A DNA stretch of 64,000 nt from Patescibacteria group bacterium (lineage in GTDB: Bacteria > Patescibacteriota > Minisyncoccia > UBA6257 > GWB1-50-10): NCBI GenBank assembly GCA_038065455.1, contig JBBTQX010000002.1:6779-70778 (forward strand). Direction: 5' to 3'. Shown piece by piece: positions 2,297-64,000 of this stretch. The position numbers and the translations under genes were made by a program. The notes beneath the pieces were generated by a model that worked only from the letters and a program-made list of their open reading frames with translations, was not told the DNA's origin and did not search any database. Within the stretch, counting starts at the first letter, position 1. Each line of letters opens with the position of its first letter.

Positions 2297-3145
2297 TTAA
2301 GAAAAATAACTTTTTAAAATCTTAATGTTTCTTTTATCGGGACCGTTATTATCAAACCCGGGCACCTCCAAGAGCCACGCCTTGTCCCAAAGGCGCTTTT
2401 CCTTCGCGAGCGCTTTGAATCCCGGAAGGCCGACATAGCCTTCGCCGATATTTTCATGCCGGTCGTTGTGCGAATTCCAGAGGGTTTTGGAGTCATTTGC
2501 GTGAATGGCAACGACATTCTCCAAACCGATTTCCTTATCCACCCTGTCCGCGAATGCCTTAATATTTCCCGCGTCATATTTGACGATTCCCGATTCAAAA
2601 GCGTGGGCGGTATCCAAACAGATTTTTACGCGCTTCGAGCCGATTTTTTTGAAGATAAACGCGAGCTCTTCGATGGTTTTTCCGATTTTCTCTCCCCCGC
2701 CGGCGGTATTTTCCATCACGAGAAAACTTTTGCCCGGAACATTCGCCAAGACTTTTTTCATTCCGGATATCGCCTGATTCAGCGATTTTTCCTTATCCAT
2801 TCCAGTACTCGAGCCGATATGGAAGATAAGCCCGGCCGCCCCGATAAGTTCGGCGATTTTCAGATGATCCGACAGGTTTCTGATTGATTTCGAAACCAGC
2901 TCCGGATTCGGACTGCCGAGATTCACCAGATACGAGGCGTGGAGATAAGCCGGGCCGATGCCGGTTCTTTTTCCCTCCTCTTTGAATTTATTTATTTCAT
3001 CCTCATTCGGCAGCTTTGTCTGCCAGGTGCGAGGCGAGGCGCCGAAAATCTGAATGCAATCCGCGCCGATTTCTTTGGCGCGCCCGAAGGCCGTCCAAAG
3101 CCCGCCGGCGGTAGAAACATGCGCTCCGATTTTAGGCTTAGTCAT
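2297..3145 (-). CDS. nfo: endonuclease IV (AP endonuclease family 2)
   Basis: 282 aa. Conserved blocks GAHVS, IFGASPR, HASYLVNL, HIGS, ENTAG, CLDTAH. Confidence 0.9.
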   Translation of the reverse strand: MTKPKIGAHVSTAGGLWTAFGRAKEIGADCIQIFGASPRTWQTKLPNEDEINKFKEEGKRTGIGPAYLHASYLVNLGSPNPELVSKSIRNLSDHLKIAELIGAAGLIFHIGSSTGMDKEKSLNQAISGMKKVLANVPGKSFLVMENTAGGGEKIGKTIEELAFIFKKIGSKRVKICLDTAHAFESGIVKYDAGNIKAFADRVDKEIGLENVVAIHANDSKTLWNSHNDRHENIGEGYVGLPGFKALAKEKRLWDKAWLLEVPGFDNNGPDKRNIKILKSYFS

Positions 3146-3173
3146 TATTTAAATATAACATGGGCCCTAAAAT

Positions 3174-3258
3174 AAAAGGATCAGACGAATTAAAAAAGTG
3201 GGTAAGACTTGGCCTAGCGGCCCGGAGCGCACACTTTTTTGGTTCGGCTGATCCTTTT
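3174..3258. repeat. long imperfect inverted repeat (hairpin) between nfo and truB
   Basis: aaaaggatcagacgaa (3174-3189) pairs with ttcggctgatcctttt (3243-3258) at 15/16. Inner arms aaaaaagtg / cactttttt. Confidence 0.6.
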
Positions 3259-4273
3259 AAGATATAGCACTTCCGGGAGGGACTTCCCTGTCTGGTTTCA
3301 ATAATACCGGCCCGCCGTCATTGGCCGCCAGGAGCATTCCTTGGCTCTCCAGACCCATCATCATTCGCGGCTCCAGATTCGCAACAACGATTATCTCGCG
3401 GCCAACCATCTCTTCCGGCAAGTAAACCTTCCCGACACCGGCTAGAATTTGTCGCGGTTCCGGTTCGCCTAAGTCCACTTTTAGCTTCAAAAGCTTTTCG
3501 GAACCTTCCACGCGTTCGGCCTCAAGCACTCTCGCGACCTTCATTTCTATCTTTTTAAATTCATCAAAATTTATGTTCATATTATTATATTTTTGTACCT
3601 CAGTGCTACAATTGATTGTAGCATCGGACTTTACGAGCTTCTCCAATTGAACGAGACTCAGGGATTCTTTTTCCGTAAAATCCCCCACTCTCGTCCTTTT
3701 GAGCGCCGCGAGATACGCGCCGGTTCCCAATTCTTTTCCGATATCGCGGGCCAAAGCCCTTACATAAACTCCTGGACCGGTCACGGCACGCAGTTCTAAA
3801 TAAGGCCACTCGTATTCCAAAATCTCAATCTCTTTTATCTCAGCTTCTCTTTCCAATAATACCGGCTTCTCGCCTTTTCTGGCAAATTTATAAGCTTCCT
3901 TACCACTCACCTTGATAGCGCTGTAAATGGGCGGAATCTGCTTGATTTTGCCGATGAATTTTTTTACCGCTTCTTTGATTTCCGAAAGAGCCGGCTTTCT
4001 GTCCGACACGGAGGTTTTCTCCCCCTCCTCGTCGTCCGTGGCGCTCGTCTCGCCCAATTTAATCTTGGCGAGATATTCTTTTTCTTTCTTCACTTCAATG
4101 CCCAATTTTTTCGTAGCTTCGCGGCCGACGCCCACGACAAGCACGCCTTCGGCCAAAGGATCGAGCGTTCCGGCATGGCCGACCTTCTCGCCTCCGGTAA
4201 TCCTCTTTATGCTCTGAACAATATCATTCGAGGTTGGGCCTTTCGGTTTATAGATAGCGAAGATTCCTTTCAT
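3257..4273 (-). CDS. truB: tRNA pseudouridine-55 synthase TruB fused to a C-terminal CsaA/Trbp111-like tRNA-binding (OB) domain
   Basis: N-terminus GHAGTLDPLAEGVL (catalytic Asp motif). The C-terminal ~110 aa (KIEMKVARVLEAERVEGSEKLLKLKVDLG...) resembles EMAP/CsaA tRNA-binding domains. Confidence 0.8.
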   Translation of the reverse strand: MKGIFAIYKPKGPTSNDIVQSIKRITGGEKVGHAGTLDPLAEGVLVVGVGREATKKLGIEVKKEKEYLAKIKLGETSATDDEEGEKTSVSDRKPALSEIKEAVKKFIGKIKQIPPIYSAIKVSGKEAYKFARKGEKPVLLEREAEIKEIEILEYEWPYLELRAVTGPGVYVRALARDIGKELGTGAYLAALKRTRVGDFTEKESLSLVQLEKLVKSDATINCSTEVQKYNNMNINFDEFKKIEMKVARVLEAERVEGSEKLLKLKVDLGEPEPRQILAGVGKVYLPEEMVGREIIVVANLEPRMMMGLESQGMLLAANDGGPVLLKPDREVPPGSAIS

Positions 4274-5383
4274 TCAGAACTCACTTTGTAGGTCTTCGAG
4301 CAATTTCTTCGCCTTGCTAGATATATGTTTGGGCAGTTTCAAATTAAAAGTTATATAAAGATCGCCGCGCGAAGACGAACCGAGCTTCGGCATACCGCGA
4401 TGAGATACTTTCATTTTTTCCTGAAGCGAAAAACCGCCGGGAATCTTGACCGAAAACACTTCTCCGCTGATATCCGCAATCGGAATGTCTTTTTCGAGCA
4501 ATGCCTCCGCTATGCCGATATCCTTCGTAAGATATAGATCTTCTTTTTTCCTCGTAAAAGCCGAATGAGACTTAATTCTCACTATCACATAAAGGTCGCC
4601 CACTCCGCCCTGGCGCTCGCCCGCTTCGCCGGCACCATGAAGTTTGATAATCTGGCCATCCTCCACGCCCGGAGCAATATTCACGTTCGCTTCCCGATTA
4701 CCTGAAATTCGCCCTTTTCCTTTGCACTTCGGACACGGCGCTTTGGGTAATTGGCCCGAACCGGAACATTCGGAACAAATTCTCACTTGAGCGAATTGGC
4801 CGAAAAAAGTCTTGCGCTCCACGTTTATCTCACCCCGTCCGCCGCACACATTGCAGGTCTCGAAACCCTTGTTTTTATCATGGCCCAAGCCCTGACAATC
4901 GCCGCAGACGAGATAGGTTTTGAAATTAATCCGGCGATTGACGCCCCGAAAAGCTTCCTCGAGCATCAAATCCTGAACCGTTTCGATGTCCGAACCTTGG
5001 GCATAGGTCTTCCGCCTCTGGCCGGATGCGCCGCCGAACTGCTCAAAAATAGTCTCGAAAATATCGTTCAGGTCGCCGTTGCCGCCGCCGAATCCCCCAA
5101 AACCTCCGGAGAATCCGCCGAAATCGGAAGCGGAAAATCCGCCCGCGAAAGGATTGCCGCCGCCCTGGCCGCCTTCAAACACCTGGCCGAAGCGATCATA
5201 TTGCGCGCGCTTATCCTTATTGGAAAGGATTTGATAAGCCTCGTTCACTTCTTTGAACTTGCCCTCGTTGCCACCCTGCTTATCCGGATGATGCTGATGG
5301 GCCAGTTTGCGATAAGCCTTCTTTATATCCTCTTCCGTGGCCGTCTTTCCGACGCCGAGAATTTTGTAGTAATCTTTCGCCAT
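4274..5383 (-). CDS. dnaJ: chaperone DnaJ
   Basis: J domain with HPD, G/F-rich region, four CxxCxGxG zinc repeats. Confidence 0.95.
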
Positions 5384-6427
5384 TTAGGATAGGAGTGTAA
5401 ACTCGCGGCTCCGCGTTTCCAAATTGAAATAAGCGAATCCGAAAACAACGAGTATTTTGAAAATAATAAATGCCAATAGAGCGACAAACCAATATAAAAG
5501 AAAGAAAGCACTTTTTACCGTGAAGAAGAAAATAAACGAAACGGCCAACGGTAAAATCCAAGATGAACTGTTGAAAGAATTAAAATATTTCGCAACGATA
5601 TCATAAGCGAAATCGGCCGTTCCCTGAACGGGATTGAGATCCACAAACTGTTTTTTGAGGACTTCCAATAGCTGATCCGTGGCCTGATCGATGAATTTAT
5701 TCTGATCCTTCTGAGGCAAGGAACGAAAATCGGTCTCCGGACTTCCGGCGCTCACGCCCGGAATTTCCAATTTAGTCCGGCTTAATTTTTCGGCAGCTAG
5801 GCTCCGCAAAAGGTTTCGAACAGTTCCGTTCAAAGAAATACCCGGCACAATGACCCGCGCGACGGGTTCGCTTGCAGTAATGGTTCCCGACACTAGCCGC
5901 CGACCCATCGCTTCGGTGAATTTCCCCCATTCGAAATAATTGAGATAGAGAACGACCGAAAGGAATATCAAAAAGCCTGTTACGATTTTCGGCAGAAACA
6001 CTCTGGTGGTTTCAAAAAAATGGAGCTTAATGCCATTCAAAACGAAGTTCCGGCCGTGCTTCATCGCTTCGACAATGAAAACAAAAGCCACGAATGCTCC
6101 AATAAGAAGCGGAACGGACGTCTCCGGATAAACCTTATCCGGAAAAACGGCGAGCGCGGCGGCCACTTCCAAAAATGCGATAAGCGAAAGTTTTCCCAGG
6201 CCTTTTATGAAAAAAACCTGGAGAATAACCACTATCAAAAAGAAAGCGAAAGCGAGAACGGTCGGCCAGAAATAAACGTTATCCAAGCCGGAGATAAGGC
6301 GCAAAAAACCGGAGAAGGTCGCGAAGCTTCCCACGATTCCCAAAAAACCTAGAAGCAGTATCTTCCAAACACTGCGGTCTACTTCCGCTTCATGGGACTC
6401 ACTGGTTATTTGAAGGCTGGGTGTCAT
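5384..6427 (-). CDS. hypothetical multi-pass membrane protein
   Basis: Long ORF with several hydrophobic segments. Start chosen at ATG 6427; the track start at 6481 overlaps dnaK more deeply. Confidence 0.55.
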   Translation of the reverse strand: MTPSLQITSESHEAEVDRSVWKILLLGFLGIVGSFATFSGFLRLISGLDNVYFWPTVLAFAFFLIVVILQVFFIKGLGKLSLIAFLEVAAALAVFPDKVYPETSVPLLIGAFVAFVFIVEAMKHGRNFVLNGIKLHFFETTRVFLPKIVTGFLIFLSVVLYLNYFEWGKFTEAMGRRLVSGTITASEPVARVIVPGISLNGTVRNLLRSLAAEKLSRTKLEIPGVSAGSPETDFRSLPQKDQNKFIDQATDQLLEVLKKQFVDLNPVQGTADFAYDIVAKYFNSFNSSSWILPLAVSFIFFFTVKSAFFLLYWFVALLAFIIFKILVVFGFAYFNLETRSREFTLLS

Positions 6428-8327: not shown

Positions 8328-8390
8328 ACCGGGCAGTAGAAATTCGATCAGTTCTTCTGCCGTGTTGCAATCGAATTTTCACTGCCCGGT
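8328..8390. repeat. family-2 inverted-repeat element, short copy
   Basis: accgggcagtagaaattcgat ... atcgaattttcactgcccggt: 21-nt arms, 19/21 complementary. The grpE stop codon lies inside the right arm. Confidence 0.75.
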
Positions 8391-8864: not shown

Positions 8865-9009
8865 ACCAGGTTAGTAGAAACTCGATTGCAAATTAACGAT
8901 TTGCTGAATCGAATCATGATTAATATATTTAATTTGACCTTTCATATTATATTTTTCCATATCCATTGTTAATTTGACGGCAAATCTAATCGAGTTTTCA
9001 CTACCTGGC
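8865..9009. repeat. family-2 inverted-repeat element, 145-nt copy (MITE-like)
   Basis: accaggttagtagaaactcgatt ... aatcgagttttcactacctggc with an AT-rich interior. Fills the whole hrcA-grpE spacer and abuts the grpE ATG. Confidence 0.75.
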
Positions 9010-9765: not shown

Positions 9766-9921
9766 GGGATACCGTGCCCCTATTCCCTTCAGCACCGGGT
9801 GTCGCGGTTCTCCCGCGGAACCGCGCACCACTAAGCTCTCGGCGAAAAATCCACCCTTCTGGGTGGAGCCGAGCTTTTTCGCCTCCGAGATTTGCTTCAG
9901 GGAACACGGGCACGGTATCCC
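9766..9921. other. GC-rich, highly self-complementary 156-nt element (candidate structured RNA or IR element)
   Basis: 14-bp closing stem gggataccgtgccc / gggcacggtatccc and nested helices. No credible ORF. Confidence 0.5.
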
Positions 9922-17645: not shown

Positions 17646-19491
17646 TGATTCGGTTATTATAGTACCACAAGAAAACGTCCCTAGCCACCGGCACGACGTT
17701 CAAACTGCCTTCCCGCGCATTTTCCACGAGTATTAAAATGGCGATTTTGGGGTCGTCATAAGGAGCGAAGCCGACGAAAAACGCGTTGGTCTTCGTGTTG
17801 TTCGAAACCTGGGCCGAGCCGGTTTTGGCGGCGACCGGAATCGGCAAGTCATGCAGAAGATAGGAAGTGCCGTAATCCCGAATCACGCCTTCGCGCATCC
17901 CCTTCCTCACTTCCGCGAGCGCCGGACCGATCTCGGCCGAAAGGTCGCGGAGAATCGCCGCCTCGTTCTTCAAAATCGTCTCGCCTTTGATATTTTTTAT
18001 TTCATTCATCACGCGCGGCTTGTTCAGCTTGCCGCCATTTGCAACTGCATTTATGTAATTCAGAAGTTCGATGGGCGTCACCGAAAAATCGCCCTGGCCA
18101 ATCGAGACGTTGAAAGTATCTCCCAAGCGCCATGGCTCGCCTTTTACTCTTTCTTTCCATGCTGGATCCGGCAAGAAACCAGCATCCTCCCCCGTTAAAT
18201 CTATATTCGTCTTTTCGTCGAGACCGAAATTATGCCACCACTTTTTCAATCTTTCTATTCCCAAGCCTTTCTGGTCTCCGAAACCGCCGCCCACGGAATA
18301 GAAATAGACATTCGAGGAACGAGCCAGAGCCGAATATAAATCCACCCAACCCTGCGGCCGCCAATCCAAAAATCGGCTCGGATGCTCCGGGTTGTAGGGA
18401 TTCGGAACATCGAGATAGCCCGGCGAATAAATTTGATGTTTCGGATCCAAGATGCCTTCCGTAAGCGCCGCGGTTCCCACCAGGGGCTTAATGGTCGAAC
18501 CGGGATTGTAAATACCGGAAATCGCCCGATTAAAGAGCGGCTGATTGGCAGAGGTAAGATACTTTCCTATTTTATTCGAATCGAACGAAGGAATATTCAC
18601 AAGAGAAAGAACTTCGCCGTTCCGCGGGTCCATCGCTATCGCAAGGCCGGTATCCCGGCCCAAATCGCGAAGCGCTTGGCTCAAGCGGTCGTAGATATAT
18701 GTCTGGAGATCCCGATCAATAAAAGATGTAAGATTGTTGCCTGGAATCGGCTCCTGAACCGTTCTTTCTTTTTCGGTTCCGCCCACTGCGTTCGTGAGCG
18801 CAACCTTCTCACCGCTCGTTCCCCGAAGATATCCGTCGTAAAAAGCCTCGAGACCATTCCGCCCGACCTGGTCGTCGATATGCAACTCCGAATCTTTCTT
18901 CATATCACTCTTGTTTGCCAAACCAGTATAGCCGACTACGTGGGAAAATTTGAAAAGCGGCGTTTGAACGCGCCGGAACGACGGGTCTATCTCCAAGCCC
19001 GGAAGATTCGCGGCGGAGAGGGATACTAATTCATCGTGATCAAGATCGGGTTTCAAAAGAAATCGGTCGGTCAAATTCCAGTCCCGTTCCTCGAGAGCTC
19101 CAAGCACCTCGTTCTCATATAAACCCAAAGTATTCAAAACATCTCCAATTGCCATTCGCCTTTCCGCAGAAGTTTTCGGAAGAGATTTCGGAACGAGATA
19201 GGCATCGAAAGCGGGCTCGTTTTCGACCATAGCCTTTCCGAAACGGTCGTAGATAATCCCCCGCGGAGCGGGCTCCGTTTTTATATCGCTCATATTCGCC
19301 GTAGCGCGCCGGGAATAGGGTTCATGATTCAAGACCGCCAAGTTCACAAATTGGGCGAAGACGGCAAGAAAAACCAGCGCGACCAAGATGATGAAATTCC
19401 TGAAAACCCGGTCCGTGAGAGGAATTTCCAAAAGGTCTTCCTCGACCGTTCGGTCGGTCAGAATGTCTTCCAGATTAAGCTCGGGATTCAT
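17638..19491 (-). CDS. mrdA: penicillin-binding protein 2 (elongasome transpeptidase)
   Basis: STIKP (SxxK), SSN, KTGSA motifs. Follows mreBCD. Confidence 0.88.
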   Translation of the reverse strand: MNPELNLEDILTDRTVEEDLLEIPLTDRVFRNFIILVALVFLAVFAQFVNLAVLNHEPYSRRATANMSDIKTEPAPRGIIYDRFGKAMVENEPAFDAYLVPKSLPKTSAERRMAIGDVLNTLGLYENEVLGALEERDWNLTDRFLLKPDLDHDELVSLSAANLPGLEIDPSFRRVQTPLFKFSHVVGYTGLANKSDMKKDSELHIDDQVGRNGLEAFYDGYLRGTSGEKVALTNAVGGTEKERTVQEPIPGNNLTSFIDRDLQTYIYDRLSQALRDLGRDTGLAIAMDPRNGEVLSLVNIPSFDSNKIGKYLTSANQPLFNRAISGIYNPGSTIKPLVGTAALTEGILDPKHQIYSPGYLDVPNPYNPEHPSRFLDWRPQGWVDLYSALARSSNVYFYSVGGGFGDQKGLGIERLKKWWHNFGLDEKTNIDLTGEDAGFLPDPAWKERVKGEPWRLGDTFNVSIGQGDFSVTPIELLNYINAVANGGKLNKPRVMNEIKNIKGETILKNEAAILRDLSAEIGPALAEVRKGMREGVIRDYGTSYLLHDLPIPVAAKTGSAQVSNNTKTNAFFVGFAPYDDPKIAILILVENAREGSLNVVPVARDVFLWYYNNRING

Positions 19492-19616
19492 CCCGTTAGA
19501 AACAGGATGCGCTTAACAAGCACATCCGTCTAGATTCAAACGACTTTATTATTGCAATGTTCCCCTGTATTGTTTCCATGATATTTCTGAATTTGCCCGT
19601 TTCTAACGGGATTCAT
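19489..19616 (-). mobile_element. family-1 element, ORF-less copy D (MITE-like derivative of the GIY-YIG element)
   Basis: Gene-strand reading: ATGAATCCCGTTAGAAAC ... TGTTTCTAACGGG-ATG(mrdA). Shares the termini and subterminal hairpin of copies A-C. Confidence 0.75.
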
Positions 19617-20097
19617 GAAGATAACCGTATTTTCCAAAAAAATTCAAACAAAGCCAAAAAATCGAACCCAAAACCAGATTATAAACGACTTCGCCAAAAA
19701 CAAAACCGCCGGCAAAAACACTGCCGGCCGTAAATTTGAGCGCTCCGTAAAATATTACTGTTCCCAAGCCGACGGCCAAAAGAAAATCTTGGAAGGACCG
19801 GCCCGTGAAGAAGTTTCGCAGGAAGAAGATTGCAAGAATTATCAAAAGGAGTATGGCCCAAGGCAACATCCAAAAATCGGACAAAATCAAAGTTACCGCA
19901 AAAGCAAAAAACAGCAGAATATATAAAAAACCCGGCTTTATCCGTTTCTTGAAATAAGGTTCGAGAAGCAAGCCAGAGAAAAATATGAGCGCCAGATTGG
20001 GATTGATTCCGCCTAAACTCAAAATTCGGGTCATTCCCAAAAAAATCAAAAGTCCCAGGAAAAGGAGTACAAAAACGAAACGGAACAAATCTCCCAT
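19603..20097 (-). CDS. mreD: rod shape-determining protein MreD-like
   Basis: 164-aa polytopic membrane protein between mreC and mrdA. The last codons and the stop lie inside element copy D. Confidence 0.6.
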   Translation of the reverse strand: MGDLFRFVFVLLFLGLLIFLGMTRILSLGGINPNLALIFFSGLLLEPYFKKRIKPGFLYILLFFAFAVTLILSDFWMLPWAILLLIILAIFFLRNFFTGRSFQDFLLAVGLGTVIFYGALKFTAGSVFAGGFVFGEVVYNLVLGSIFWLCLNFFGKYGYLHESR

Positions 20098-28749: not shown

Positions 28750-28758
28750 GCATCCATT

Positions 28759-28830
28759 ATACCCGGTATTACAATGTTTAGAAAAGTTGCTGGTTCATTT
28801 TTTTTTGATTAGGTTTGTAATACCGGGTAT
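28759..28830. repeat. perfect 16-bp inverted repeat in the murA / GIY-YIG divergent spacer
   Basis: atacccggtattacaa (28759-28774) and ttgtaataccgggtat (28815-28830), 40-nt T-rich loop. Confidence 0.7.
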
Positions 28831-28842
28831 ATTATTAAAGGT

Positions 28843-29130
28843 ATGTATCCCGTTAGAGACATTTCTATGTATTACAATTACGTTTTAAGAAGCAAAAAAG
28901 ATGGGAAATGGTATACTGGCTACACGAATGATCTACGGAAGCGCTTTAGCCAGCACAATAGCGATAAATTCCCTCAATGGACCAAAAATCGGGGTCCTTT
29001 TGAAATCATATACTATGAAGCCTGCAAAGATCTGCAAGATGCAAGGTCGAGGGAATATTATCTAAAAACAGGAATGGGTAAACGTTATATCAAAAATAGG
29101 CTAAAGCGCTTCCTGTCTCTAACGGGATGA
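28843..29130 (+). mobile_element. family-1 element, ORF-bearing copy A (GIY-YIG ORF bounded by 15-bp TIRs)
   Basis: ATCCCGTTAGAGACA (28847-28861) is the exact reverse complement of TGTCTCTAACGGGAT (29114-29128). The ORF spans TIR to TIR. Confidence 0.75.
28843..29130 (+). CDS. small GIY-YIG nuclease-domain protein (COG2827/UPF0213-like)
   Basis: YNYVLRS..GKWYTGYTNDLRKRFSQHN...E..YLK: GIY, YIG, Arg and Glu positions present. Alternative start at ATG 28867. Confidence 0.8.
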   Translation: MYPVRDISMYYNYVLRSKKDGKWYTGYTNDLRKRFSQHNSDKFPQWTKNRGPFEIIYYEACKDLQDARSREYYLKTGMGKRYIKNRLKRFLSLTG

Positions 29131-33296: not shown

Positions 33297-33896
33297 TTAA
33301 CGCGAATAGAATTGGCCGACCACGTTTATATCGAAAGGTAGTTGCACTCCGGTAACGGGCGGTTTTGCCACGCACTCGCCTTTCAATTCCTCCGCTTTGA
33401 GCTTAAGCCACTCAGGCGGGGTGTATTGCTTCAACCGGAGTTGAATATCATCGAAAATCTTCGCCGAGCGGGATTCGGGCCGCACAGCAATAATGTCTTT
33501 AACCCTAACATAATAGGAAGGAATTGTCACTTTTCGGCCATTCACGTGGATATGGCCGTGGGAGACGAGCTGGCGGGCGATTCTCGGAGACTTCGCGAAT
33601 CCCAAAAGAAAAACCACGTGGTCGAGGCGGCTTTCGAGCTTGGTCATAATGCCGTCTTTGTCGGAATTCCGGAACATTCTCATCATCTGATGATTATTCA
33701 GCCCGTAAAGAATTTGGATTTTCTGTTTTTCCTGGAGCTGCTTTCCGAATTCGGAAACGGAGTGGCGCGCCTGGCCGTGCTGGCCCGGGCGGTAAGGATG
33801 GCGTACCATCGCGCACTTCGGCGAATTACAGCGGTCTCCCTTGAGGAAGAGTTTGATGCCCAGCGATCTTTCTTTTTTCTCTTTGATTCTTTTCAT
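33297..33896 (-). CDS. rpsD: 30S ribosomal protein S4
   Basis: S4 N-terminal Cys cluster (CNSPKC) and S4 RNA-binding domain. Start trimmed to ATG 33896; the track extension reads into the repeat. Confidence 0.9.
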   Translation of the reverse strand: MKRIKEKKERSLGIKLFLKGDRCNSPKCAMVRHPYRPGQHGQARHSVSEFGKQLQEKQKIQILYGLNNHQMMRMFRNSDKDGIMTKLESRLDHVVFLLGFAKSPRIARQLVSHGHIHVNGRKVTIPSYYVRVKDIIAVRPESRSAKIFDDIQLRLKQYTPPEWLKLKAEELKGECVAKPPVTGVQLPFDINVVGQFYSR

Positions 33897-34024
33897 CCCG
33901 TTTAGAGACAGGATACGCTTAAGAAGCATATCCGTGAAGCATTAGCCGATTCGACTTTATTGGATTCTATTGATTGTTTGATAATCATGTTATTCATAAG
34001 TTTGATGTCTCTAACGGGATTCAT
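33894..34024 (-). mobile_element. family-1 element, ORF-less copy B
   Basis: Gene-strand reading: ATGAATCCCGTTAGAGACA ... TGTCTCTAAACGGG-ATG(rpsD). Confidence 0.75.
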
Positions 34025-34030
34025 ATTTTT

Positions 34031-34175
34031 ACCAGGCAGTGAAAATGCGATTGCAAATCGTGATTGAATCGACGATTCTCGCTATTTCCAATGACCTTTT
34101 ATTTATATTCATATGTTTTGATATTATGATGGTTTTCGATTTGAATTCAATCTAATCGCATTTCTACTGCCTGGT
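34031..34175. repeat. family-2 inverted-repeat element, 145-nt copy
   Basis: accaggcagtgaaaatgcgatt ... aatcgcatttctactgcctggt. The interior is alignable with the copy at 8865-9009. The right end overlaps the rpsK stop codon. Confidence 0.75.
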
Positions 34176-34624
34176 TAAACCCTTCTGGTCTTGGCCGGAC
34201 GCGGTCCGTTGTGCGGAATCGGCGTCACATCCTTGATGGACAGTATATTCAAGCCCTTGCCGGCGAAAGAACGGATGGCGGAATCGCGGCCGCTACCCAC
34301 GCCGCGCACGAAAATCTCCACGGTATTCGGGCCGGTCTTTTCCAATTTCTGGGCAATGGCTTCGGCGACTTTGGAAGACGCGAAAGGAGTCGCCTTCTTG
34401 GGTCCGGAAAATCCCAAAGAGCCAGCGGACATCCATGTAATCACGGCACCCTTATCGTCGGTTACGGTAATAATGGTGTTATTATAGGTGGCTTGAATAT
34501 AGATACGGCCGTTTTCCCAGTGCTGTTTGGATGTGGACGAAGATTGCTTAGCCGGCGCCTTTTCGGCCGTCCCCGCTTCCTTCACCGCTTCGTCTTTGGT
34601 TTTTATGACTTTTTTCTTTCCCAT
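34175..34624 (-). CDS. rpsK: 30S ribosomal protein S11
   Basis: 149 aa. Conserved S11 core with an N-terminal K/A-rich extension. Confidence 0.92.
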   Translation of the reverse strand: MGKKKVIKTKDEAVKEAGTAEKAPAKQSSSTSKQHWENGRIYIQATYNNTIITVTDDKGAVITWMSAGSLGFSGPKKATPFASSKVAEAIAQKLEKTGPNTVEIFVRGVGSGRDSAIRSFAGKGLNILSIKDVTPIPHNGPRPAKTRRV

Positions 34625-34686
34625 TTGCCGATTATATATGAATTTTCGAGTCTACAGACGATGAAAATTCATCCATAGAATCGAGC

Positions 34687-34785
34687 ACCCCGCCATCATC
34701 CCCGACTTGGAGCAGGATATTTTCTTTCATTATGATTTTCGTTATTTTATTGTTTTTCATATTTTTAGTGTAATGATGGCGGGGT
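34687..34785. repeat. family-3 inverted repeat in the rpsM-rpsK spacer
   Basis: accccgccatcat (34687-34699) and atgatggcggggt (34773-34785): perfect 13 bp, 73-nt AT-rich interior. Confidence 0.65.
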
Positions 34786-34795
34786 AAGTGTTCCC

Positions 34796-35179
34796 TTATT
34801 TCAAATCGACTTTCCGCTTGCCACTACCGGCCGTCTTCCTGACGTTGCCGCGCACCGTCCGGGAATTCGTTTTCGTCCGCTGGCCGCGCACCGGAAGCTT
34901 TCGCAAATGACGCACGCCGCGATAGGCTTTAATATCTTTCAAGCGAGCGATGTTCTGTTTTATCACTTGCCGCAACTCTCCCTCAATCTTGTAGTTCTTC
35001 TCTATCATTGATTGGATGCGGTTCACCTCGTCCGGCGCCAAATCCTTCGCTCGTTTTTGGAGGTCGATTTTCGCGCCGACCAAAACCTTGGCGGCCAAGG
35101 TCGGGCCAATGCCGTAGATGTAGCCCAAGGCCACGTAGATTTTTTTGTTATCGGGTATGTTTACTCCGGCGATTCTCAT
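34796..35179 (-). CDS. rpsM: 30S ribosomal protein S13
   Basis: MRIAGVNIPDNKK...YRG.RH...LPVRGQRT.TN.RT pattern. Confidence 0.93.
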   Translation of the reverse strand: MRIAGVNIPDNKKIYVALGYIYGIGPTLAAKVLVGAKIDLQKRAKDLAPDEVNRIQSMIEKNYKIEGELRQVIKQNIARLKDIKAYRGVRHLRKLPVRGQRTKTNSRTVRGNVRKTAGSGKRKVDLK

Positions 35180-35181
35180 AA

Positions 35182-35298
35182 TTATCCTTGTCTTTGTTTA
35201 TGCCTCGGGTTCTTGGCACATATGACGTAAACCCGCCCTTTTCGACGGACGGTCTTGCAAACGCTGCAGATTTTTTTTACCGATGCTCTGACTTTCAT
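35182..35298 (-). CDS. rpmJ: 50S ribosomal protein L36
   Basis: Hand-translated: [38 protein letters not shown] (38 aa). Absent from the ORF track because it is too short. Confidence 0.9.
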
Positions 35299-35424
35299 CC
35301 CGTTAGAGACAGGATACGCTTAAAAAGCGCATCCGTGATATGTCGCTTGGTTTGATTATTCCGACCTGTTGGTTATTCATATTGATACATTATTCAAAAT
35401 TTGTTTGTCTCTAACGGGATTCAT
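35296..35424 (-). mobile_element. family-1 element, ORF-less copy C
   Basis: Gene-strand reading: ATGAATCCCGTTAGAGACA ... TGTCTCTAACGGG-ATG(rpmJ). Confidence 0.75.
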
Positions 35425-35430
35425 AAAACT

Positions 35431-35658
35431 TTACAATCTTCGCACGATTCGTCCCCGTTTGTCCAGGATGTTCGCCATCTCCACCATAACCCTGTCTCCG
35501 GGGATAACCCGGATGCGGTTGATTTTAAGCTTGCCGGCGGGATGCGCTAAAATGTCTTTTTCTTCCCCGTTTTCAAGTTTGACCTTCACGCGGAAAAGCA
35601 AACCCGGCAGTGCCTCCACCGCTATTCCCTCAATCCTGACTAAAGGCGTATTTTCCAT
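35431..35658 (-). CDS. infA: translation initiation factor IF-1
   Basis: S1-like OB fold: FRVKLENGEE.LAH.AGK...N.IRV.PGD.V. Start set at ATG 35658; the track start is TTG. Confidence 0.88.
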   Translation of the reverse strand: MENTPLVRIEGIAVEALPGLLFRVKVKLENGEEKDILAHPAGKLKINRIRVIPGDRVMVEMANILDKRGRIVRRL

Positions 35659-35673
35659 TAACAAACAGAGTGA

Positions 35674-35817: not shown

Positions 35818-36510
35818 TTAACTTTCCGCAAGACCTGATTCTCTTGAGTCAGGTTTTTGCTTTTTAACCGCAATATACTTTTTTATGTCTTGAGCATTGA
35901 TTTTATTATCAACTAGCTCTCCTAACGACGCATCAATATGCCCTCCTTTTATTAAAATTATCTTTTTCTTTTGTTTCTTTAAGAAACGGATAAGAGCGGC
36001 GAAATCGGCATCGGACGATAATAGACAGAACGTATCATATGAATTGATGAGTCTTACGGAATCAACTGAAACCTCCACGTCAAAATTGCACTTCGGAATC
36101 AATATAAAATTCCCTCCCTTATCAACATTTATCTTCCGCATTGTCTCGCTTTTTTCTTCGGAATCCAGATAATGCTTGATTTGCTGTATTGGTTTAGTGA
36201 AAACCCTAGACTTACCGAAAATATGTTCCGCGGCCCGTTTGAATCTTAAAGACCCTGGATTAACAGGGTCGTGTCCATAATAAAAACGATCATCGCTGGA
36301 AAACGCGCTCAAGAAATCTTTTAATTTTTGCAGACCAATCGTTAACAACTCATTATCTGCCATTTTCACTCCGCTCTCATCAAAATCATCTTCATCAAAC
36401 CAATGATTGACGTTCGCAAAATCAATGAATGAGATAATGTTCGGATACCTGTCCGGTAAGATATCAAGATTTTTTCTTATTTGATCTTTTTTAAGTTCTT
36501 CCAAATCCAT
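35818..36510 (-). CDS. NYN (LabA/DUF88-like) nuclease-domain protein
   Basis: ISFIDFANVNHWF and LLSSDADFAALIRFLKKQKKKIILI match NYN-domain acidic motifs. The ATG at 36510 has an AAGGAG SD inside the upstream gene and lies 1 nt after its stop. Confidence 0.7.
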   Translation of the reverse strand: MDLEELKKDQIRKNLDILPDRYPNIISFIDFANVNHWFDEDDFDESGVKMADNELLTIGLQKLKDFLSAFSSDDRFYYGHDPVNPGSLRFKRAAEHIFGKSRVFTKPIQQIKHYLDSEEKSETMRKINVDKGGNFILIPKCNFDVEVSVDSVRLINSYDTFCLLSSDADFAALIRFLKKQKKKIILIKGGHIDASLGELVDNKINAQDIKKYIAVKKQKPDSRESGLAES

Positions 36511-36511
36511 T

Positions 36512-39364
36512 TTAATTTTCTCCTTCAACTGTTTTTATTTCTTCCTCCGTTAAGCCGTAGAGCTTATATACCTCCTCATCAATTTTCTTGTCGGTTCTTC
36601 CTATTTCGGATTTCAGTCGTTCCCATTCGTTGGAATTTTCCTCGACGTCGTGAAATTCTTTATTAAGAAGGATTATCTTATCAACATAAGAAATTATTAA
36701 TTTCTGCGATGCCTCGTCTGCAATATAAATTGGTAGATCTAATAGTGGCTCCTTATCTATTTGTAGTTGATCACCCTGTAATTTCCCCTTATTTCTTAAC
36801 CAGAAATGCATGATGTTTGAATTGAGTAATCCAAGAACATATTTGAGATTCACTTTATCCAATTTTAAAATTATAAAAGCTCTTGTAACATAACAAGGAA
36901 AATCAACATATGAAAAGGATGGTTTTATGGTTTTCCTTATTGAAAAAATACAGTGGCCCTCAAAAAATCTTTCTTCGCGTGCCCTATGAAGACCATAGGG
37001 AGCATACACAGAAGTTAAAATTTTAGAAAATTTATCTAGGTGTTTTTTGAGATTAGGAAACTGTTCAATATGTTCCCGGAAATAACTGTCCGCATAAATT
37101 ATACGGAGGCTTGTGTTTTTAATAGATAAGTATCTATTTATTTCTTTTGTTGTATAGTACGGTCTTAAATATTGATCTTCAGGTTTTGTTGGTGAAAGTT
37201 CTTTAATTTCGTCCTCAGATAAAATAAATATGCCATCGCCTTTCTTTATTGTTTTATCTGACAAACCCTGTAGGTGCTTTTCAGTGATAAAATCTTGCAA
37301 AACATCAATGCCATTACCGACATCTTTTTCGTTAATGTGGTAATTCTGTTTTGATTTTATCTTTTCTAGGAGAATGTCTTTATTGCTCTCGGTAAAAATT
37401 AAAAAGTGGCCCAGTAATTTTTCTGGTTTAATCTCAATTTCGGTTTTTTCACCAAAAATTCTGGAAATAAGTTCGTTTTCCGCTATATTCCTATCGGGAA
37501 TCCTTAAATAACTTACCTTGTATTTTTCATCTGGTTTTCCTTTTTTAAAGGTAAAAATCATTGTTTGAATCCCAGCTTGTTCAAAAACCTTATAGTCACC
37601 AAAATCTAGGAAGGATTTTAGTTCGCCATCTTTTAAAATTTTATCTCTAAAAATATCTGCGCCGGCATTGCTTACCCAATTATTCGGAGCGATAAAACTC
37701 AAAATTCCCCCGTCTTTAAGTAAATCTATTGAAATGCACGCAAACATTGTCCAAATATCCATTTTACCCTGATAATATGGGCTATCGTGCAGACCATTAA
37801 AAGCTTCTTTATTCACAAACTCCTTGATATACGGCGGGTTTCCGATAATCACATCAAACCCGCCTTGTTTGAAAACCTCCGGAAATTCCTCTTCCCAGTT
37901 AAACGGCTTCTTATTGCGAAAATTTGCACCAAAATGCTTTTTAAGTTCCGAGTCGGTGCCCGAAATGAGCGAGTTTCCATTCTTTATATTTTTATCGAGC
38001 GATGGCAGCTTCTGCCTTTCATTTAAAGCGCCTACAAGAAGATTTAATCTGGCGATTTCAACCGCTTGCTCGTCCAGATCAACCCCATAGATATTCTCTA
38101 AAAGTATTTGGATTTTTGTGAAAACATTCCCTGGTGCGCCCATTTTCTTGTATTTTTCATTGATAAGTTCCAACGCCTGAACAAGAAACGAACCGGAACC
38201 ACAGGCCGGGTCCAGTACCTTTATCTTCTTCAAATCCTCTATAGTGTTGCACTTTTCCAAAACCGGCCCCAAGGCGTTTTTCACGATATACTCAACGATA
38301 AAATGGGGCGTGTAATAAATCCCCTGCTCCTTGCGCTTCTTAGCATCCTTATGAACTTCTACGCCCTTCTTTGATTGAGAAAGTTTATAGCCGAGATAGT
38401 TTTCATAAACTGTTCCTAGAACATCAGCGGGCATCGCCTTGAAATCATATTCATAATAGCCCGGTTTGCCGTAGAGAATCTGAATAACTTTCTCCGTGGC
38501 GTCGCCATATTCCTCCCATTCTTCAAACGGGTGTTCGGAAAAAAGATTGGAATTGTAGGTTTTATCCAATTCCCTGAATTTATCCACCATGTGCTTGTAA
38601 AGCGGCACCTCGTTTTGGTCTTTGCGATTTTTCCATTCACGAAGCAATGGGATAAGCGTTGGCGGTTCAATTCCTCTATCCTCGGCAACACGTAAAAAGA
38701 TAAGTCTGTCCAAAAGCTTTTGAACGCCTTCATCTAAAAATTGGGGGGCAATTTTAGAATTCCAAGCCTTCAACGATTTAGTAAGAATCTCCCGACATTC
38801 GTTCAGGTCGTTGAATAACAGCGAAGTTACCGGAATTTTCTGGAATTTCTTTCCGAATTTTTCTGCCTCTGTATCGATAAGATTTTTCTCGAATGATTCT
38901 CTTGATAAGAGCGAAAGTTGGTCAAAACATTCAATATATCTATCGTAGGAAATTTCAAAGAGAAGTTTGGCGGCCAATGTCGCTTTCGCATCCTGCGTGT
39001 TGAAAACTTTTATACTCTCAAAGTCGGTAAGCACTGCCCAAGTTACGCCCTTATTCCAAGAATATCTTATTGCTTGTTTGGCATATTCTTCGCGATGCAA
39101 ATCCACCTTAAGTGATTTGGCCTCTAAATAGAATTTCGCCCGGCCATTTAAATAAAATCCGTAATCAACTCTATCCGAGGATGATAAATTTTCTTCCGCT
39201 GAAACCTCATTTTTGTTATGGACATCCCACCCAAGCGCTTCAAAAATCGGCAGAATAAAATCTTTTTTTGTTTCCTCTTCCGTATAACTCTTTATCTTGC
39301 CGGCCGATTTAGCAATTTCATACTTATCAATAAGCAACCTTATCTTCTCTTTCGGGTCATTCAT
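36512..39364 (-). CDS. type IIG (fused endonuclease-N6-adenine methyltransferase-specificity) restriction-modification enzyme, Eco57I/MmeI-like
   Basis: N-terminal PD-(D/E)xK-like D...EAK (VDYGFYL...FYLEAKS), SAM motif VLDPACGSGSFLV, catalytic NPPY (IIGNPPYIKE), C-terminal TRD-like region. 950 aa. Confidence 0.85.
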   Translation of the reverse strand: MNDPKEKIRLLIDKYEIAKSAGKIKSYTEEETKKDFILPIFEALGWDVHNKNEVSAEENLSSSDRVDYGFYLNGRAKFYLEAKSLKVDLHREEYAKQAIRYSWNKGVTWAVLTDFESIKVFNTQDAKATLAAKLLFEISYDRYIECFDQLSLLSRESFEKNLIDTEAEKFGKKFQKIPVTSLLFNDLNECREILTKSLKAWNSKIAPQFLDEGVQKLLDRLIFLRVAEDRGIEPPTLIPLLREWKNRKDQNEVPLYKHMVDKFRELDKTYNSNLFSEHPFEEWEEYGDATEKVIQILYGKPGYYEYDFKAMPADVLGTVYENYLGYKLSQSKKGVEVHKDAKKRKEQGIYYTPHFIVEYIVKNALGPVLEKCNTIEDLKKIKVLDPACGSGSFLVQALELINEKYKKMGAPGNVFTKIQILLENIYGVDLDEQAVEIARLNLLVGALNERQKLPSLDKNIKNGNSLISGTDSELKKHFGANFRNKKPFNWEEEFPEVFKQGGFDVIIGNPPYIKEFVNKEAFNGLHDSPYYQGKMDIWTMFACISIDLLKDGGILSFIAPNNWVSNAGADIFRDKILKDGELKSFLDFGDYKVFEQAGIQTMIFTFKKGKPDEKYKVSYLRIPDRNIAENELISRIFGEKTEIEIKPEKLLGHFLIFTESNKDILLEKIKSKQNYHINEKDVGNGIDVLQDFITEKHLQGLSDKTIKKGDGIFILSEDEIKELSPTKPEDQYLRPYYTTKEINRYLSIKNTSLRIIYADSYFREHIEQFPNLKKHLDKFSKILTSVYAPYGLHRAREERFFEGHCIFSIRKTIKPSFSYVDFPCYVTRAFIILKLDKVNLKYVLGLLNSNIMHFWLRNKGKLQGDQLQIDKEPLLDLPIYIADEASQKLIISYVDKIILLNKEFHDVEENSNEWERLKSEIGRTDKKIDEEVYKLYGLTEEEIKTVEGEN

Positions 39365-47134: not shown

Positions 47135-47142
47135 TTTATTTC

Positions 47143-47172
47143 CTAGGTGGTGTCTTTAAAGACACCACCTAG
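47143..47172. repeat. 30-nt perfect palindrome, copy 1
   Basis: ctaggtggtgtctttaaagacaccacctag. Lies 9 nt upstream of the ATG at 47134 and overlaps its AGGA Shine-Dalgarno. Confidence 0.8.
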
Positions 47173-47190
47173 TTTTTGTCTTATTTTATA

Positions 47191-62829: not shown

Positions 62830-64000
62830 TTATCCCCAGGGTGGTGTCTTTAAAGACACCACCCTGTTTTTCGACGTTTTCAAAATGAAAGTTGCGATTG
62901 CCAGATAATAAGCAACAATAAAAATCCAACCCAAAGACACGCTTAGAGATAGATTGAAGTTGCCGAAGAATTCTATCAGTCCCGTCTCGACTTTCAATAG
63001 CGGCCAAACGAACCAGCCGGCGATGAGCGCGAGATAATGCGAGATGCCGGAGAGAACGGCGACGGCGAAGCCGAGCATCATCGTATACGGAATAAGCTCC
63101 AGAACCAGAACATTCGAGATGAGCGAAATAGGCGAAAAATTCCCGAAGTTCTGGATTAATATCGGAAGAACCATAAGCTGAGCGGAGCCGGTCATCAGGA
63201 GATTCTCCCGCCAGGAAAAAGTTTCTTTTTTCCCGCCGACCGGCAAATTGAAAAGCTCTTCGAGCGCCGGCTTCAAATATACGATGCCGATGAGCGCGAG
63301 GAATGAAAGTTCAAAACCGGCATCGAATACCAACACCTTGGGATTTATAAGCACCATCAAGAGTCCCGCTAAAGTTATGGCATTCCGCGGATTGAAGATG
63401 CGGCCGCTCTCGGTCGCAACGACGACGAGCGCGCCCATAATCGCCGCTCGCACGACCGATGCCTCCGCTCCGGTCATAAGCACGAAGGCGACAAGGAAAA
63501 TGAAGGCGACAATAAAAGCAGTCCTTCTTTTCAAGAATGAAGTGAGTAAAGCCATTGCCGCCACGATGACGATCGAGACGTTGTAGCCCGAAAGCGCGAC
63601 CAGGTGCGTCGTGCCGCTTATCTGCATCGCCACTTTGAACTCGGGAGAAAAATCGCTCCGCTCACCCAAGGTCAGGCCGGAAAGAAAAGCCGCTTCCTCG
63701 ACCGGCAATATCTCTCCGAAATTATCCACAGTGGAATTCTTGAGATTGAATAAAAAAGATTTGAAGGGCGCGCCCTTATCTTCCGCGATTAGCTTAACTT
63801 CGGGATATGAAACAATTCCGCTTATTCCCTCCTTCGCCAGATATTGGGCATAGCCTGCCTGCGCAGGCAGGCCTCCCAATTCCGGTTTTTTGACCGCGCC
63901 ATTTACCGAAATCAAGTCGCCATAATGGAATTCGGGATAGCGCGGAGCATTTACGAGAATTTTCACCTTGGCGCCGGAAAATTCCGTTTGGACGTAAAGA
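62830..64000 (-). CDS. comEC: ComEC/Rec2 competence-channel part (OB-like + multi-TM competence domain), 5'-partial
   Basis: Competence-domain TM pattern. The reading frame stays open upstream of GTG 63966 to the window edge. Confidence 0.8.
   Translation of the reverse strand, partial: LYVQTEFSGAKVKILVNAPRYPEFHYGDLISVNGAVKKPELGGLPAQAGYAQYLAKEGISGIVSYPEVKLIAEDKGAPFKSFLFNLKNSTVDNFGEILPVEEAAFLSGLTLGERSDFSPEFKVAMQISGTTHLVALSGYNVSIVIVAAMALLTSFLKRRTAFIVAFIFLVAFVLMTGAEASVVRAAIMGALVVVATESGRIFNPRNAITLAGLLMVLINPKVLVFDAGFELSFLALIGIVYLKPALEELFNLPVGGKKETFSWRENLLMTGSAQLMVLPILIQNFGNFSPISLISNVLVLELIPYTMMLGFAVAVLSGISHYLALIAGWFVWPLLKVETGLIEFFGNFNLSLSVSLGWIFIVAYYLAIATFILKTSKNRVVSLKTPPWG
62837..62866. repeat. 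30-nt perfect palindrome, copy 2
   Basis: cagggtggtgtctttaaagacaccaccctg. The central 24 nt are identical to copy 1. Lies in the last codons of the upstream comEC ORF. Confidence 0.8.

Follow-up and report, generated by a model that had tools for sequence, protein, structure and literature searches.

Inverted-repeat elements in a ribosomal-protein operon

This study concerns inverted-repeat elements in the spacers of a ribosomal-protein operon from a member of the Patescibacteria (GenBank assembly GCA_038065455.1). The window, i.e., the whole stretch of 64,000 nt that was analysed, comprises positions 6,779 to 70,778 of contig JBBTQX010000002.1. It contains the genes infA, rpmJ, rpsM, rpsK and rpsD (Table 1), followed by rpoA, rplQ, rplM and rpsI according to the list of open reading frames (ORFs) and the gene calls of the public contig L121. 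The original prediction had described spacers of 132 nt between infA and rpmJ, 171 nt between rpsM and rpsK and 278 nt between rpsK and rpsD, occupied by four inverted-repeat elements of three families. Both the sizes and the repeats were recovered at these places, and the rpmJ-rpsM spacer measures 2 nt only. The enlargement of the spacers is almost certainly due to inserted miniature elements. Two of their families, termed family 1 (F1) and family 2 (F2), very probably derive from GIY-YIG nuclease cassettes; the third family is termed F3.

The F1 elements are bounded by terminal inverted repeats (TIRs) of the sequence YCCCGTTAGAGAC with arms of 13-15 nt, and the F2 elements by TIRs of the sequence CCRGGYAGTGAAAAYTCGA with arms of ~24-26 nt. 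The terminal F1 12-mer CCCGTTAGARAC, searched with at most one mismatch, matched the window seven times, always exactly, where 0.41 matches were expected and none of 100 shuffles reached seven. Likewise, the RNA folds of the four operon elements gave z-scores of -5.7 to -7.0, and none of 200 shuffles folded equally well. The element ends had also been reported to coincide with stop and start codons, which holds true because F1 rebuilds the host ATG from its last base and the duplicated target, and because the F2 duplication in the operon is the stop codon TAA of rpsK itself.

Table 1. Genes and inverted-repeat elements of the window, with positions counted from its first letter.
Feature	Position	Strand	Basis and remarks
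infA	35431-35664	-	ORF list and Pfam
Captured original rpmJ start, ATGAA	35420-35424	-	TGAA duplication: 5' copy 35420-35423, 3' copy 35294-35297
F1-C, 122 nt, infA-rpmJ spacer	35298-35419	-	TIR; 126-nt-shorter empty allele; fold -44.3 kcal/mol, z = -6.95; final base serves as A in the ATG of rpmJ; inverted repeat 35297-35311/35406-35420 (15 nt, 100% complementary)
rpmJ	35182-35298	-	ORF list and Pfam
rpsM	34796-35179	-	ORF list and Pfam
F3, 99 nt, rpsM-rpsK spacer	34687-34785	-	Inverted repeat 34687-34699/34773-34785 (13 nt, 100% complementary); no target duplication; fold z = -5.71
Weak extra hairpin, rpsM-rpsK spacer	34633-34677	-	15-nt arms, 87% complementary; fold z = -2.53
rpsK	34175-34624	-	ORF list and Pfam
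F2, 143 nt, directly after rpsK stop	34032-34174	-	TIR; TAA copies 34175-34177 (the stop itself) and 34029-34031; inverted repeat 34027-34052/34154-34179 (26 nt, 88% complementary)
F1-B, 124 nt, directly 5' of rpsD	33896-34019	-	TGAA copies 34020-34023 and 33892-33895; one additional A in 3' arm
rpsD	33297-33896	-	ORF list and Pfam
Full-length F1, 280 nt	28848-29127	+	TIR 12-mer search
F1-A, 121 nt, directly 5' of mrdA (PBP2)	19491-19611	-	TIR with compensatory variant AGAAAC/GTTTCT
F2, 143 nt, directly 5' of grpE	8866-9008	-	Flanks CATG and TATG
F2 mini copy, 61 nt, inside grpE 3' end	8329-8389	-	TTGA duplication on + strand

The comparison with close and distant relatives, which had been proposed as a check, indicates that the long spacers are derived. 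Ten public-assembly contigs (L121-L130) encode an RpsK identical to that of the window. L121 and L123-L128 feature the same spacers as the window wherever the contig covers them, and L122, L129 and L130, which are 97-99.3% identical to the window across the operon, lack three of the four elements. F1-C and F1-B are precisely absent from all three. Their infA-rpmJ junction reads TGTAAAGTTTTATGAAAGTC, with TTTTATGAAAGTC as the empty rpmJ site, and the absence of F1-C shortens this junction in L122 and L130 by 126 nt, i.e., by the 122-nt element and one TGAA. The F2 site of the three contigs reads TTTAA-CCAGGCAATAAA-AAAT-ATG and retains 12 extra nt, which open with nucleotides 1-7 of the F2 TIR and look like an excision or deletion footprint. 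Since these contigs are so similar to the window, the presence and absence of the elements appear as a polymorphism inside one species-level population of the Hainich groundwater wells. Long spacers of unrelated sequence in all relatives had been named as the finding that would speak against insertion; L131 (RpsK 91% identical) and L135 (80%) feature spacers of 1-7 nt at all three sites, so that the original interpretation is supported. All close strains possess F3, whereas L131 and L135 do not, and the short spacers of the latter two indicate that the F3 spacer is derived as well. Moreover, L132 (RpsK 87% identical) and L136 (73%) carry other, unrelated inverted-repeat elements in the same operon, and the colonisation of this operon is thus recurrent. 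Almost certainly, the operon spacers owe their size to miniature, non-autonomous mobile elements that inserted recently.

Among these elements, F3 is an orphan insertion of a single locus. It resembles the others in its layout, in which the outer stem encloses an interior rich in A and a small hairpin lies beside the 3' arm. No relatives beyond the orthologous locus were detected in 1.87 Mb of retrieved DNA, and a 42-amino-acid ORF in its spacer gave no Pfam match.

In principle, the hairpins could have evolved in place as regulatory RNAs of the host, e.g., as autoregulatory leaders, attenuators or RNase III sites, as the alpha operon features an S4-binding leader in some bacteria and the elements form strong structures as part of the mRNA. 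Nevertheless, the same sequences occur at mrdA, at grpE and at an unrelated gene, they are absent from near-identical strains and relatives, and target duplications are present, by which such an origin is contradicted and has to be regarded as highly improbable. Rfam revealed no RNA family in the elements, neither at gathering score nor at E-value thresholds, with a tRNA as the sole window match at gathering; Alpha_RBS (RF00140) reached 13.4 bits against a threshold of 38 and lies outside the elements (35150-35181). A terminator scan found no terminator-like sites within the elements, and a promoter-like site is situated upstream of infA (35702-35674). Judged from the sequence, co-transcription of the elements with the operon is likely, and a later co-option of the hairpins by the host is possible.

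Further differences were noticed in the same operon of the relatives. L132 harbours three copies (1973-2109, 2953-3085 and 4432-4568) of a different inverted-repeat family (TCCCTCACCCTTCAAGG..., named by the sequence TCCCTCACCC), which also occurs in L220 (8136-8264). Each L132 copy has GGGA|TGAGA as its end, placed at the start codon of one of the genes rpsM, rpsD and rplQ, and no duplication is visible on the 5' side. In L136 (1474-4989), four operon spacers are enlarged to 124-466 nt (infA-rpsM, rpsM-rpsK, rpoA-rplQ and rplQ-rplM) and contain yet other repeat-rich sequence. The strains also differ upstream of infA, where the window features an MmeI-type restriction-modification gene and an NYN-domain gene (35818-39364) and L122 carries SocA_Panacea-domain genes in their place (1-2052).

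Full-length and miniature copies of families 1 and 2

Beyond the operon, the window contains a third short F1 copy (F1-A) as well as a full-length F1 copy and two F2 copies at grpE, the latter three, like the weak fifth hairpin of the rpsM-rpsK spacer, not being listed in the original prediction. The full-length F1 copy is spanned by a GIY-YIG ORF of 95 codons (28843-29130), which starts in the left flank, passes both TIRs and ends with a TGA overlapping the ATG of the downstream gene at 29127. The ORF matches Pfam PF01541 with E = 5.5e-16 and 59.1 bits (cut-off 22.6), and its nearest solved structure is PDB 1zg2 (UPF0213 protein BH0048, E = 7e-12). An internal stem, termed IR2, is formed by 28937-28951 and 29099-29113. 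When the three copies of about 120 nt are aligned to the long copy, they match it at either end and leave a single gap of ~154 nt between the IR2 arms. Accordingly, the short F1 form (114-124 nt) is the long form minus these ~154 nt, with the TIR stem and a hairpin inside the 3' TIR being kept. In a tblastn search of the nuclease against the window, the short copies showed no detectable similarity to the protein in their interiors.

Several observations concern the surroundings of these copies. The long copy adjoins an intergenic inverted repeat with perfect arms of 17 nt (28758-28831). At F1-A (19603-19620), the 5' TIR provides the TAG stop of an upstream membrane-protein ORF (19603-20097), which would overlap the mrdA start if the element were absent. 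At F1-B, gene callers extend rpsD by 11 codons into the element, resulting in 210 instead of 199 amino acids (L121, 3696-4328). Likewise, the F2 mini copy inside the 3' end of grpE swaps the predicted GrpE C-terminus ...KLSKGQG for ...KLSTGQ and supplies a new stop.

For a broader survey of F1, one genome per species was scanned with the exact 14-mer of the 3' TIR, which yielded at least 120 loci. About 44 matches without a 5' TIR were mostly chance-like, and 94 two-ended elements were kept, including the window copies; all F1 counts refer to the matches listed. The sizes cluster at ~63, 114-124 and 272-278 nt, and no element longer than 302 nt was found, with 4 kb upstream included in the search. 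The 4-nt flanks are identical in 61 of the 94 elements (15 in a permutation control) and match at three of four positions in 10 more, and the terminal bases are complementary (T...A or C...G) in 92. TGAA (38 elements), TGGA (16) and TGAG (8) are the prevailing duplications, and their reverse-complement types account for ~5. The alternatives that ATGAAT belongs to the element or represents a duplication of 5-6 nt were ruled out by copies of the types G-TGAA-T...A-TGAA and G-TCAA-T...A-TCAA, which instead establish a 4-bp duplication next to terminal Y/R bases. A minority class features a 3-bp duplication and a leader peptide shifted to MIPLE. According to the record titles, the hosts are mostly Patescibacteria of many lineages, accompanied by metagenome-assembled genomes (MAGs) of Planctomycetota, Omnitrophota and Elusimicrobiota and by one contig each from a gammaproteobacterial and a zetaproteobacterial MAG.

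The corresponding metagenome scan for the F2 TIR retrieved at least 120 loci, of which 104 elements were analysed; as for F1, the counts apply to the matches listed. Their sizes cluster at 62-87, 111-148 and 297-355 nt. A perfect 4-bp duplication was found in 70 elements, being TATG in 49, NATG in 57 (54 with a downstream ORF) and the reverse complement CATA in 3. Eleven longer forms, of which ten measure 297-346 nt and one is a truncated tandem unit of 207 nt, can be read from the captured ATG into a GIY-YIG domain, with the translation MPGSENS..MFYYVYIL...KRMLKEYFYS. They match the F1 nuclease profile with E = 1e-15 to 1e-31, and one of them matches Pfam GIY-YIG with E = 5.9e-18 and 65.4 bits (cut-off 22.6); several other longer forms are frameshifted. 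A subterminal hairpin of the F1 kind was not consistently found in F2. Both families are common in the Patescibacteria of this sample. The full-length elements of 272-355 bp thus feature family-specific TIRs and, as sole gene, a GIY-YIG nuclease of the UPF0213 type with 87-99 amino acids, and their insertion duplicates 4 bp, occasionally 3. F1 and F2 are two families of one superfamily, and both derive very probably from GIY-YIG nuclease cassettes.

The structure of these cassettes also recalls free-standing homing endonucleases, which would cut empty alleles and be copied by repair, with the short forms representing decayed relics. GIY-YIG is a classical homing-endonuclease fold, there is a weak NCBIfam match to a group I intron endonuclease, and free-standing endonuclease genes of phages lie between genes. 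In contrast, the copies adjoin many unrelated genes, and copy-specific 4-bp duplications are unexpected from homology-directed copying. Furthermore, short non-coding copies are polymorphic among strains and the protein does not possess a DNA-binding domain for a long homing site, so that a homing origin is very unlikely.

Tandem elements that share one duplication between neighbours were observed in L018 (two full-length F1 copies), L030, L033, L045, L047, L074 and L147. The tandem of L147 consists of three 207-nt F2 units. In L018, the duplication does not contain TGA, and the GIY-YIG frame is open into the downstream ORF (261 and 631 codons from stop to stop).

Start-codon capture and conservation of the nuclease

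The usual F1 target is TGRA within A|TGRA and the usual F2 target is TATG, both being start codons of genes, and the insertion of either family is almost always sense to the downstream gene. In 65 of the 94 F1 elements, the terminal A and the duplicated TG rebuild the host ATG, with a downstream ORF of at least 50 codons in 59 of these, and the host ORFs therefore stay intact. The nuclease ORF starts from the host ATG (ATG AAT CCC GTT AGA GAC, translated to MNPVRD) and stops at the TGA of the duplication, which overlaps the host start as ATGA. A mini-ORF of 39-42 codons that begins at the captured ATG was found in 10 of 31 short F1 copies, its stop either preceding the host ATG by 4 nt or overlapping with it. 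The mini-ORF of F1-B (40 codons, 33902-34024) likewise starts at the captured ATG and ends 5 nt before the ATG of rpsD; that of F1-C contains an early stop. Such mini-ORFs may preserve translational coupling to the host gene.

The capture of start codons is also apparent from the proteins. More than 3,300 homologues of the F1 nuclease were found, mostly annotated from Patescibacteria, and the TIR-encoded N-terminus (MNPVRD...) is present in 82 of the best 120 of them. Nearly all of these best 120 end with ...KRFLSLTG, in which FLSLTG is exact or changed at one residue. The shared termini of the proteins are translations of the TIRs. In 51 of the 82 homologues with the TIR-encoded extension, no Met occurs between the extension and the GIY-YIG domain, and these proteins must consequently start at the flanking ATG. 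This ATG in turn is derived from the target, because the 4 nt beside the TIR vary among copies, yet match on both sides.

Invariant third-codon positions in the TIRs were set aside as evidence for a constraint on the DNA, the loci being chosen by TIR sequence, and two reading frames together with the covariation in a protein-sampled set were used in their place. One and the same F1 TIR occurs in two reading frames, giving MNPVRD in one and MIPLE in the other. Within the best 120 proteins, a sample retrieved by protein, residue 6 from the N-terminus and residue -4 from the C-terminus covary as D/S, N/F, G/P, T/V and A/A, and as MIPLEP/A. The joint change of these pairs indicates that the TIRs are kept complementary. 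In the same way, the IR2 stem features compensatory changes at 7 pairs among 10 full-length copies, though both arms encode motifs of the (L)RKRF/(L)KRF type. Among 61 short copies, a hairpin of variable sequence directly adjoins the inner side of the 3' TIR in 43 and that of the 5' TIR in one. The constraint on F1 thus acts at the level of the nucleic acid as well as of the protein.

At the protein level, the residues Y3, Y5, Y16, G18, R26, H30 and E51 are invariant in 20 F1 and F2 proteins. The catalytic roles of Tyr, Tyr, Arg, His and Glu are known from the family literature, and the invariance of this signature shows that the nuclease is under selection. The F1 and F2 nucleases are 40-47% identical, and the TIRs and targets of the two families differ. 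A search with PADLOC gave sub-threshold matches only and hence no link to known defence systems. A few divergent small GIY-YIG genes in the retrieved loci are not flanked by TIRs, and this architecture is therefore not universal. A divergent small GIY-YIG gene of L006 (reverse strand, 5457-5784) is situated between direct repeats resembling the 5' half of a tRNA gene, which points to a different insertion strategy.

Apart from F1, F2 and F3, the window contains further inverted repeats. A GC-rich one of 156 nt with 29-nt arms (9766-9921) lies upstream of a promoter-like sequence before hrcA and gave neither an Rfam match nor a second copy in the retrieved DNA. Another with 28-nt arms is intergenic (3173-3259). 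In addition, the palindrome CTAGGTGGTGTCTTTAAAGACACCACCTAG, followed by a T run, is repeated at 47136-47177 and 62830-62871, and could be a terminator common to both places or a further family of small repeats.

Mobility of the elements and relation to known systems

The data show insertion at the DNA level, the duplications and the bias in orientation, and they likewise show that TIR type and nuclease subfamily are linked and that stems are conserved. The mechanism itself is a proposal. The GIY-YIG nuclease may well be the mobilising enzyme, in which case it would cut the element ends and the target. If this cut is staggered by 4 nt and made at a non-palindromic site, it would produce cohesive ends and would account for the duplication as well as for the precision of the empty alleles and the single orientation. 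The element probably rides the operon mRNA as a long hairpin, and the host gene behind it would be translated by coupling or reinitiation. Carried further, F1 and F2 might represent a new class of autonomous prokaryotic transposons, the smallest known (~275-320 bp), with a nuclease of ~90 amino acids as their sole protein, a proposal that is put forward tentatively. The nuclease of such a transposon would recognise the folded TIR together with the subterminal hairpin and make the staggered cuts, and ligation or repair by the host would complete a directional cut-and-paste. The element would possess no promoter, ribosome-binding site or start codon of its own, nor, in F1, a stop codon, all of which would be gained by landing on a host start codon.

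Several points weigh against this interpretation. To our knowledge, no GIY-YIG enzyme is known to act as a transposase, the family being hydrolytic nucleases, and the 87-amino-acid nuclease does not feature a separate DNA-binding domain. The case for nuclease-driven transposition is built on association, on co-variation of TIR and nuclease and on polymorphism. For the long F1 copy of the window, the flanks match at three of four bases only (TGTA/TGAA). In a search via its two neighbouring genes, the contigs of several assemblies (L258-L260) end at this copy; no empty allele was found with contigs breaking at the element, and a polymorphism of the long copy was not seen. Retrieval by the exact 14-mer makes the invariance of the 3' TIR partly built in. 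The F2 copy of the operon shows a 3-bp match (TAA) only as its duplication, and F3 features neither a duplication nor relatives nor an explanation. Moreover, the preference for start codons and the sense orientation could reflect selection on survivors rather than targeting, and selection for the expression of the ORF and for sparing host genes could equally give this bias.

As a further counterpoint, F1 and F2 could be ordinary MITEs (transposable elements of the miniature inverted-repeat type), which are moved in trans by a DDE-type transposase encoded elsewhere and carry the GIY-YIG gene as a passenger or as addiction-type cargo. TIRs with a duplication of 3-4 bp form the classical DDE signature, and besides the want of a known GIY-YIG transposase, short and long F2 forms share only the TIRs and the type of duplication, their interiors not being alignable. 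Nevertheless, among the 94 F1 and 104 F2 elements listed, no copy exceeds 355 nt, and the TIRs enclose no ORF besides that of the nuclease. In addition, the nuclease ORF spans both F1 TIRs, and two nuclease subfamilies are each associated with their own TIR and target. A strong orientation bias at a non-palindromic target is also unusual for DDE elements, and this explanation is accordingly considered unlikely.

The miniature copies share their general properties with bacterial MITEs, e.g., Correia/NEMIS of Neisseria, RUP and ERIC, which feature 60-150 nt, TIRs, short duplications, multiple intergenic copies and co-transcribed hairpins. TIRs bound all three families (13 nt in F3), and copy-specific duplications accompany F1 and F2, but not F3. 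Small non-coding copies are multiple in F1 and F2, with three short F1 and three F2 elements in the window and more than 100 loci per family in the collections scanned; F3 is single-copy. In contrast to MITEs, the TIRs of F1 and F2 are not shared with an element that encodes a known transposase, but with a longer element that encodes a GIY-YIG nuclease only, and the insertion is sense at start codons with the ATG being rebuilt. The REP/REPIN sequences and their RAYT enzymes likewise combine a small nuclease-type gene bracketed by inverted repeats with dispersed short intergenic hairpins. However, RAYT belongs to the HUH Y1 enzymes, and the REPs, as short GC-rich hairpins, do not feature a target duplication, whereas F1 and F2 feature a GIY-YIG enzyme, a 4-bp duplication and a gene inside the repeats. 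The IS200/IS605 elements are very small as well, and the subterminal hairpin kept by covariation suggests a recognition of folded nucleic acid as in this group; yet these elements use a Y1 transposase without TIRs or duplication, whereas F1 and F2 feature both and are less than half as large. Homing endonucleases of the free-standing GIY-YIG kind (I-TevI, T4 Seg) have the catalytic domain and the selfish location between host genes in common with F1 and F2, but contain an added DNA-binding domain for one cognate site and show no TIRs, duplications or miniature derivatives. F1 and F2 hence qualify neither as homing endonucleases nor as REP/RAYT or IS200/IS605 systems. Their proteins belong to the GIY-YIG superfamily, with PF01541 scores above the gathering score and the catalytic signature conserved. 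By sequence, they are closest to the UPF0213/YhbQ-type proteins (1zg2, see above; 1ywl, E = 1e-4), which also consist of a single catalytic domain of ~90 amino acids, and the Slx1 nuclease domain is a weak match (E = 0.34). We know of no description of UPF0213/YhbQ-type or Slx1 proteins as TIR-bounded or mobile. A search of the full-text literature, in which the sequences were included, returned no description of TIR-bounded GIY-YIG elements, its coverage being incomplete and an earlier description possible. GIY-YIG genes have been reported among the horizontally transferred genes of Patescibacteria, with no structure given (PMC12455944).

A widespread superfamily thus appears to be formed by GIY-YIG minigenes with bounding TIRs and by the miniature elements derived from them, with insertion at start codons that are rebuilt in the process. 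In practical terms, the F1 repeats break metagenome assemblies and mislead gene callers, as seen for rpsD. Irrespective of the mobilising enzyme, a source and a target rule are provided for abundant and previously unexplained hairpin repeats of Patescibacteria, and thousands of minigenes annotated as "GIY-YIG nuclease family" are explained along with their odd invariant termini. The most highly expressed operons, moreover, tolerate repeated colonisation. Known transposases belong to the DDE, DEDD, HUH, serine and tyrosine types. If the nuclease drives the mobility, it would constitute a sixth transposase enzyme type, and the minimum size of autonomous mobile elements would have to be lowered, with a particularly economical mode of expression in which the start codon of the host is borrowed and then handed back.

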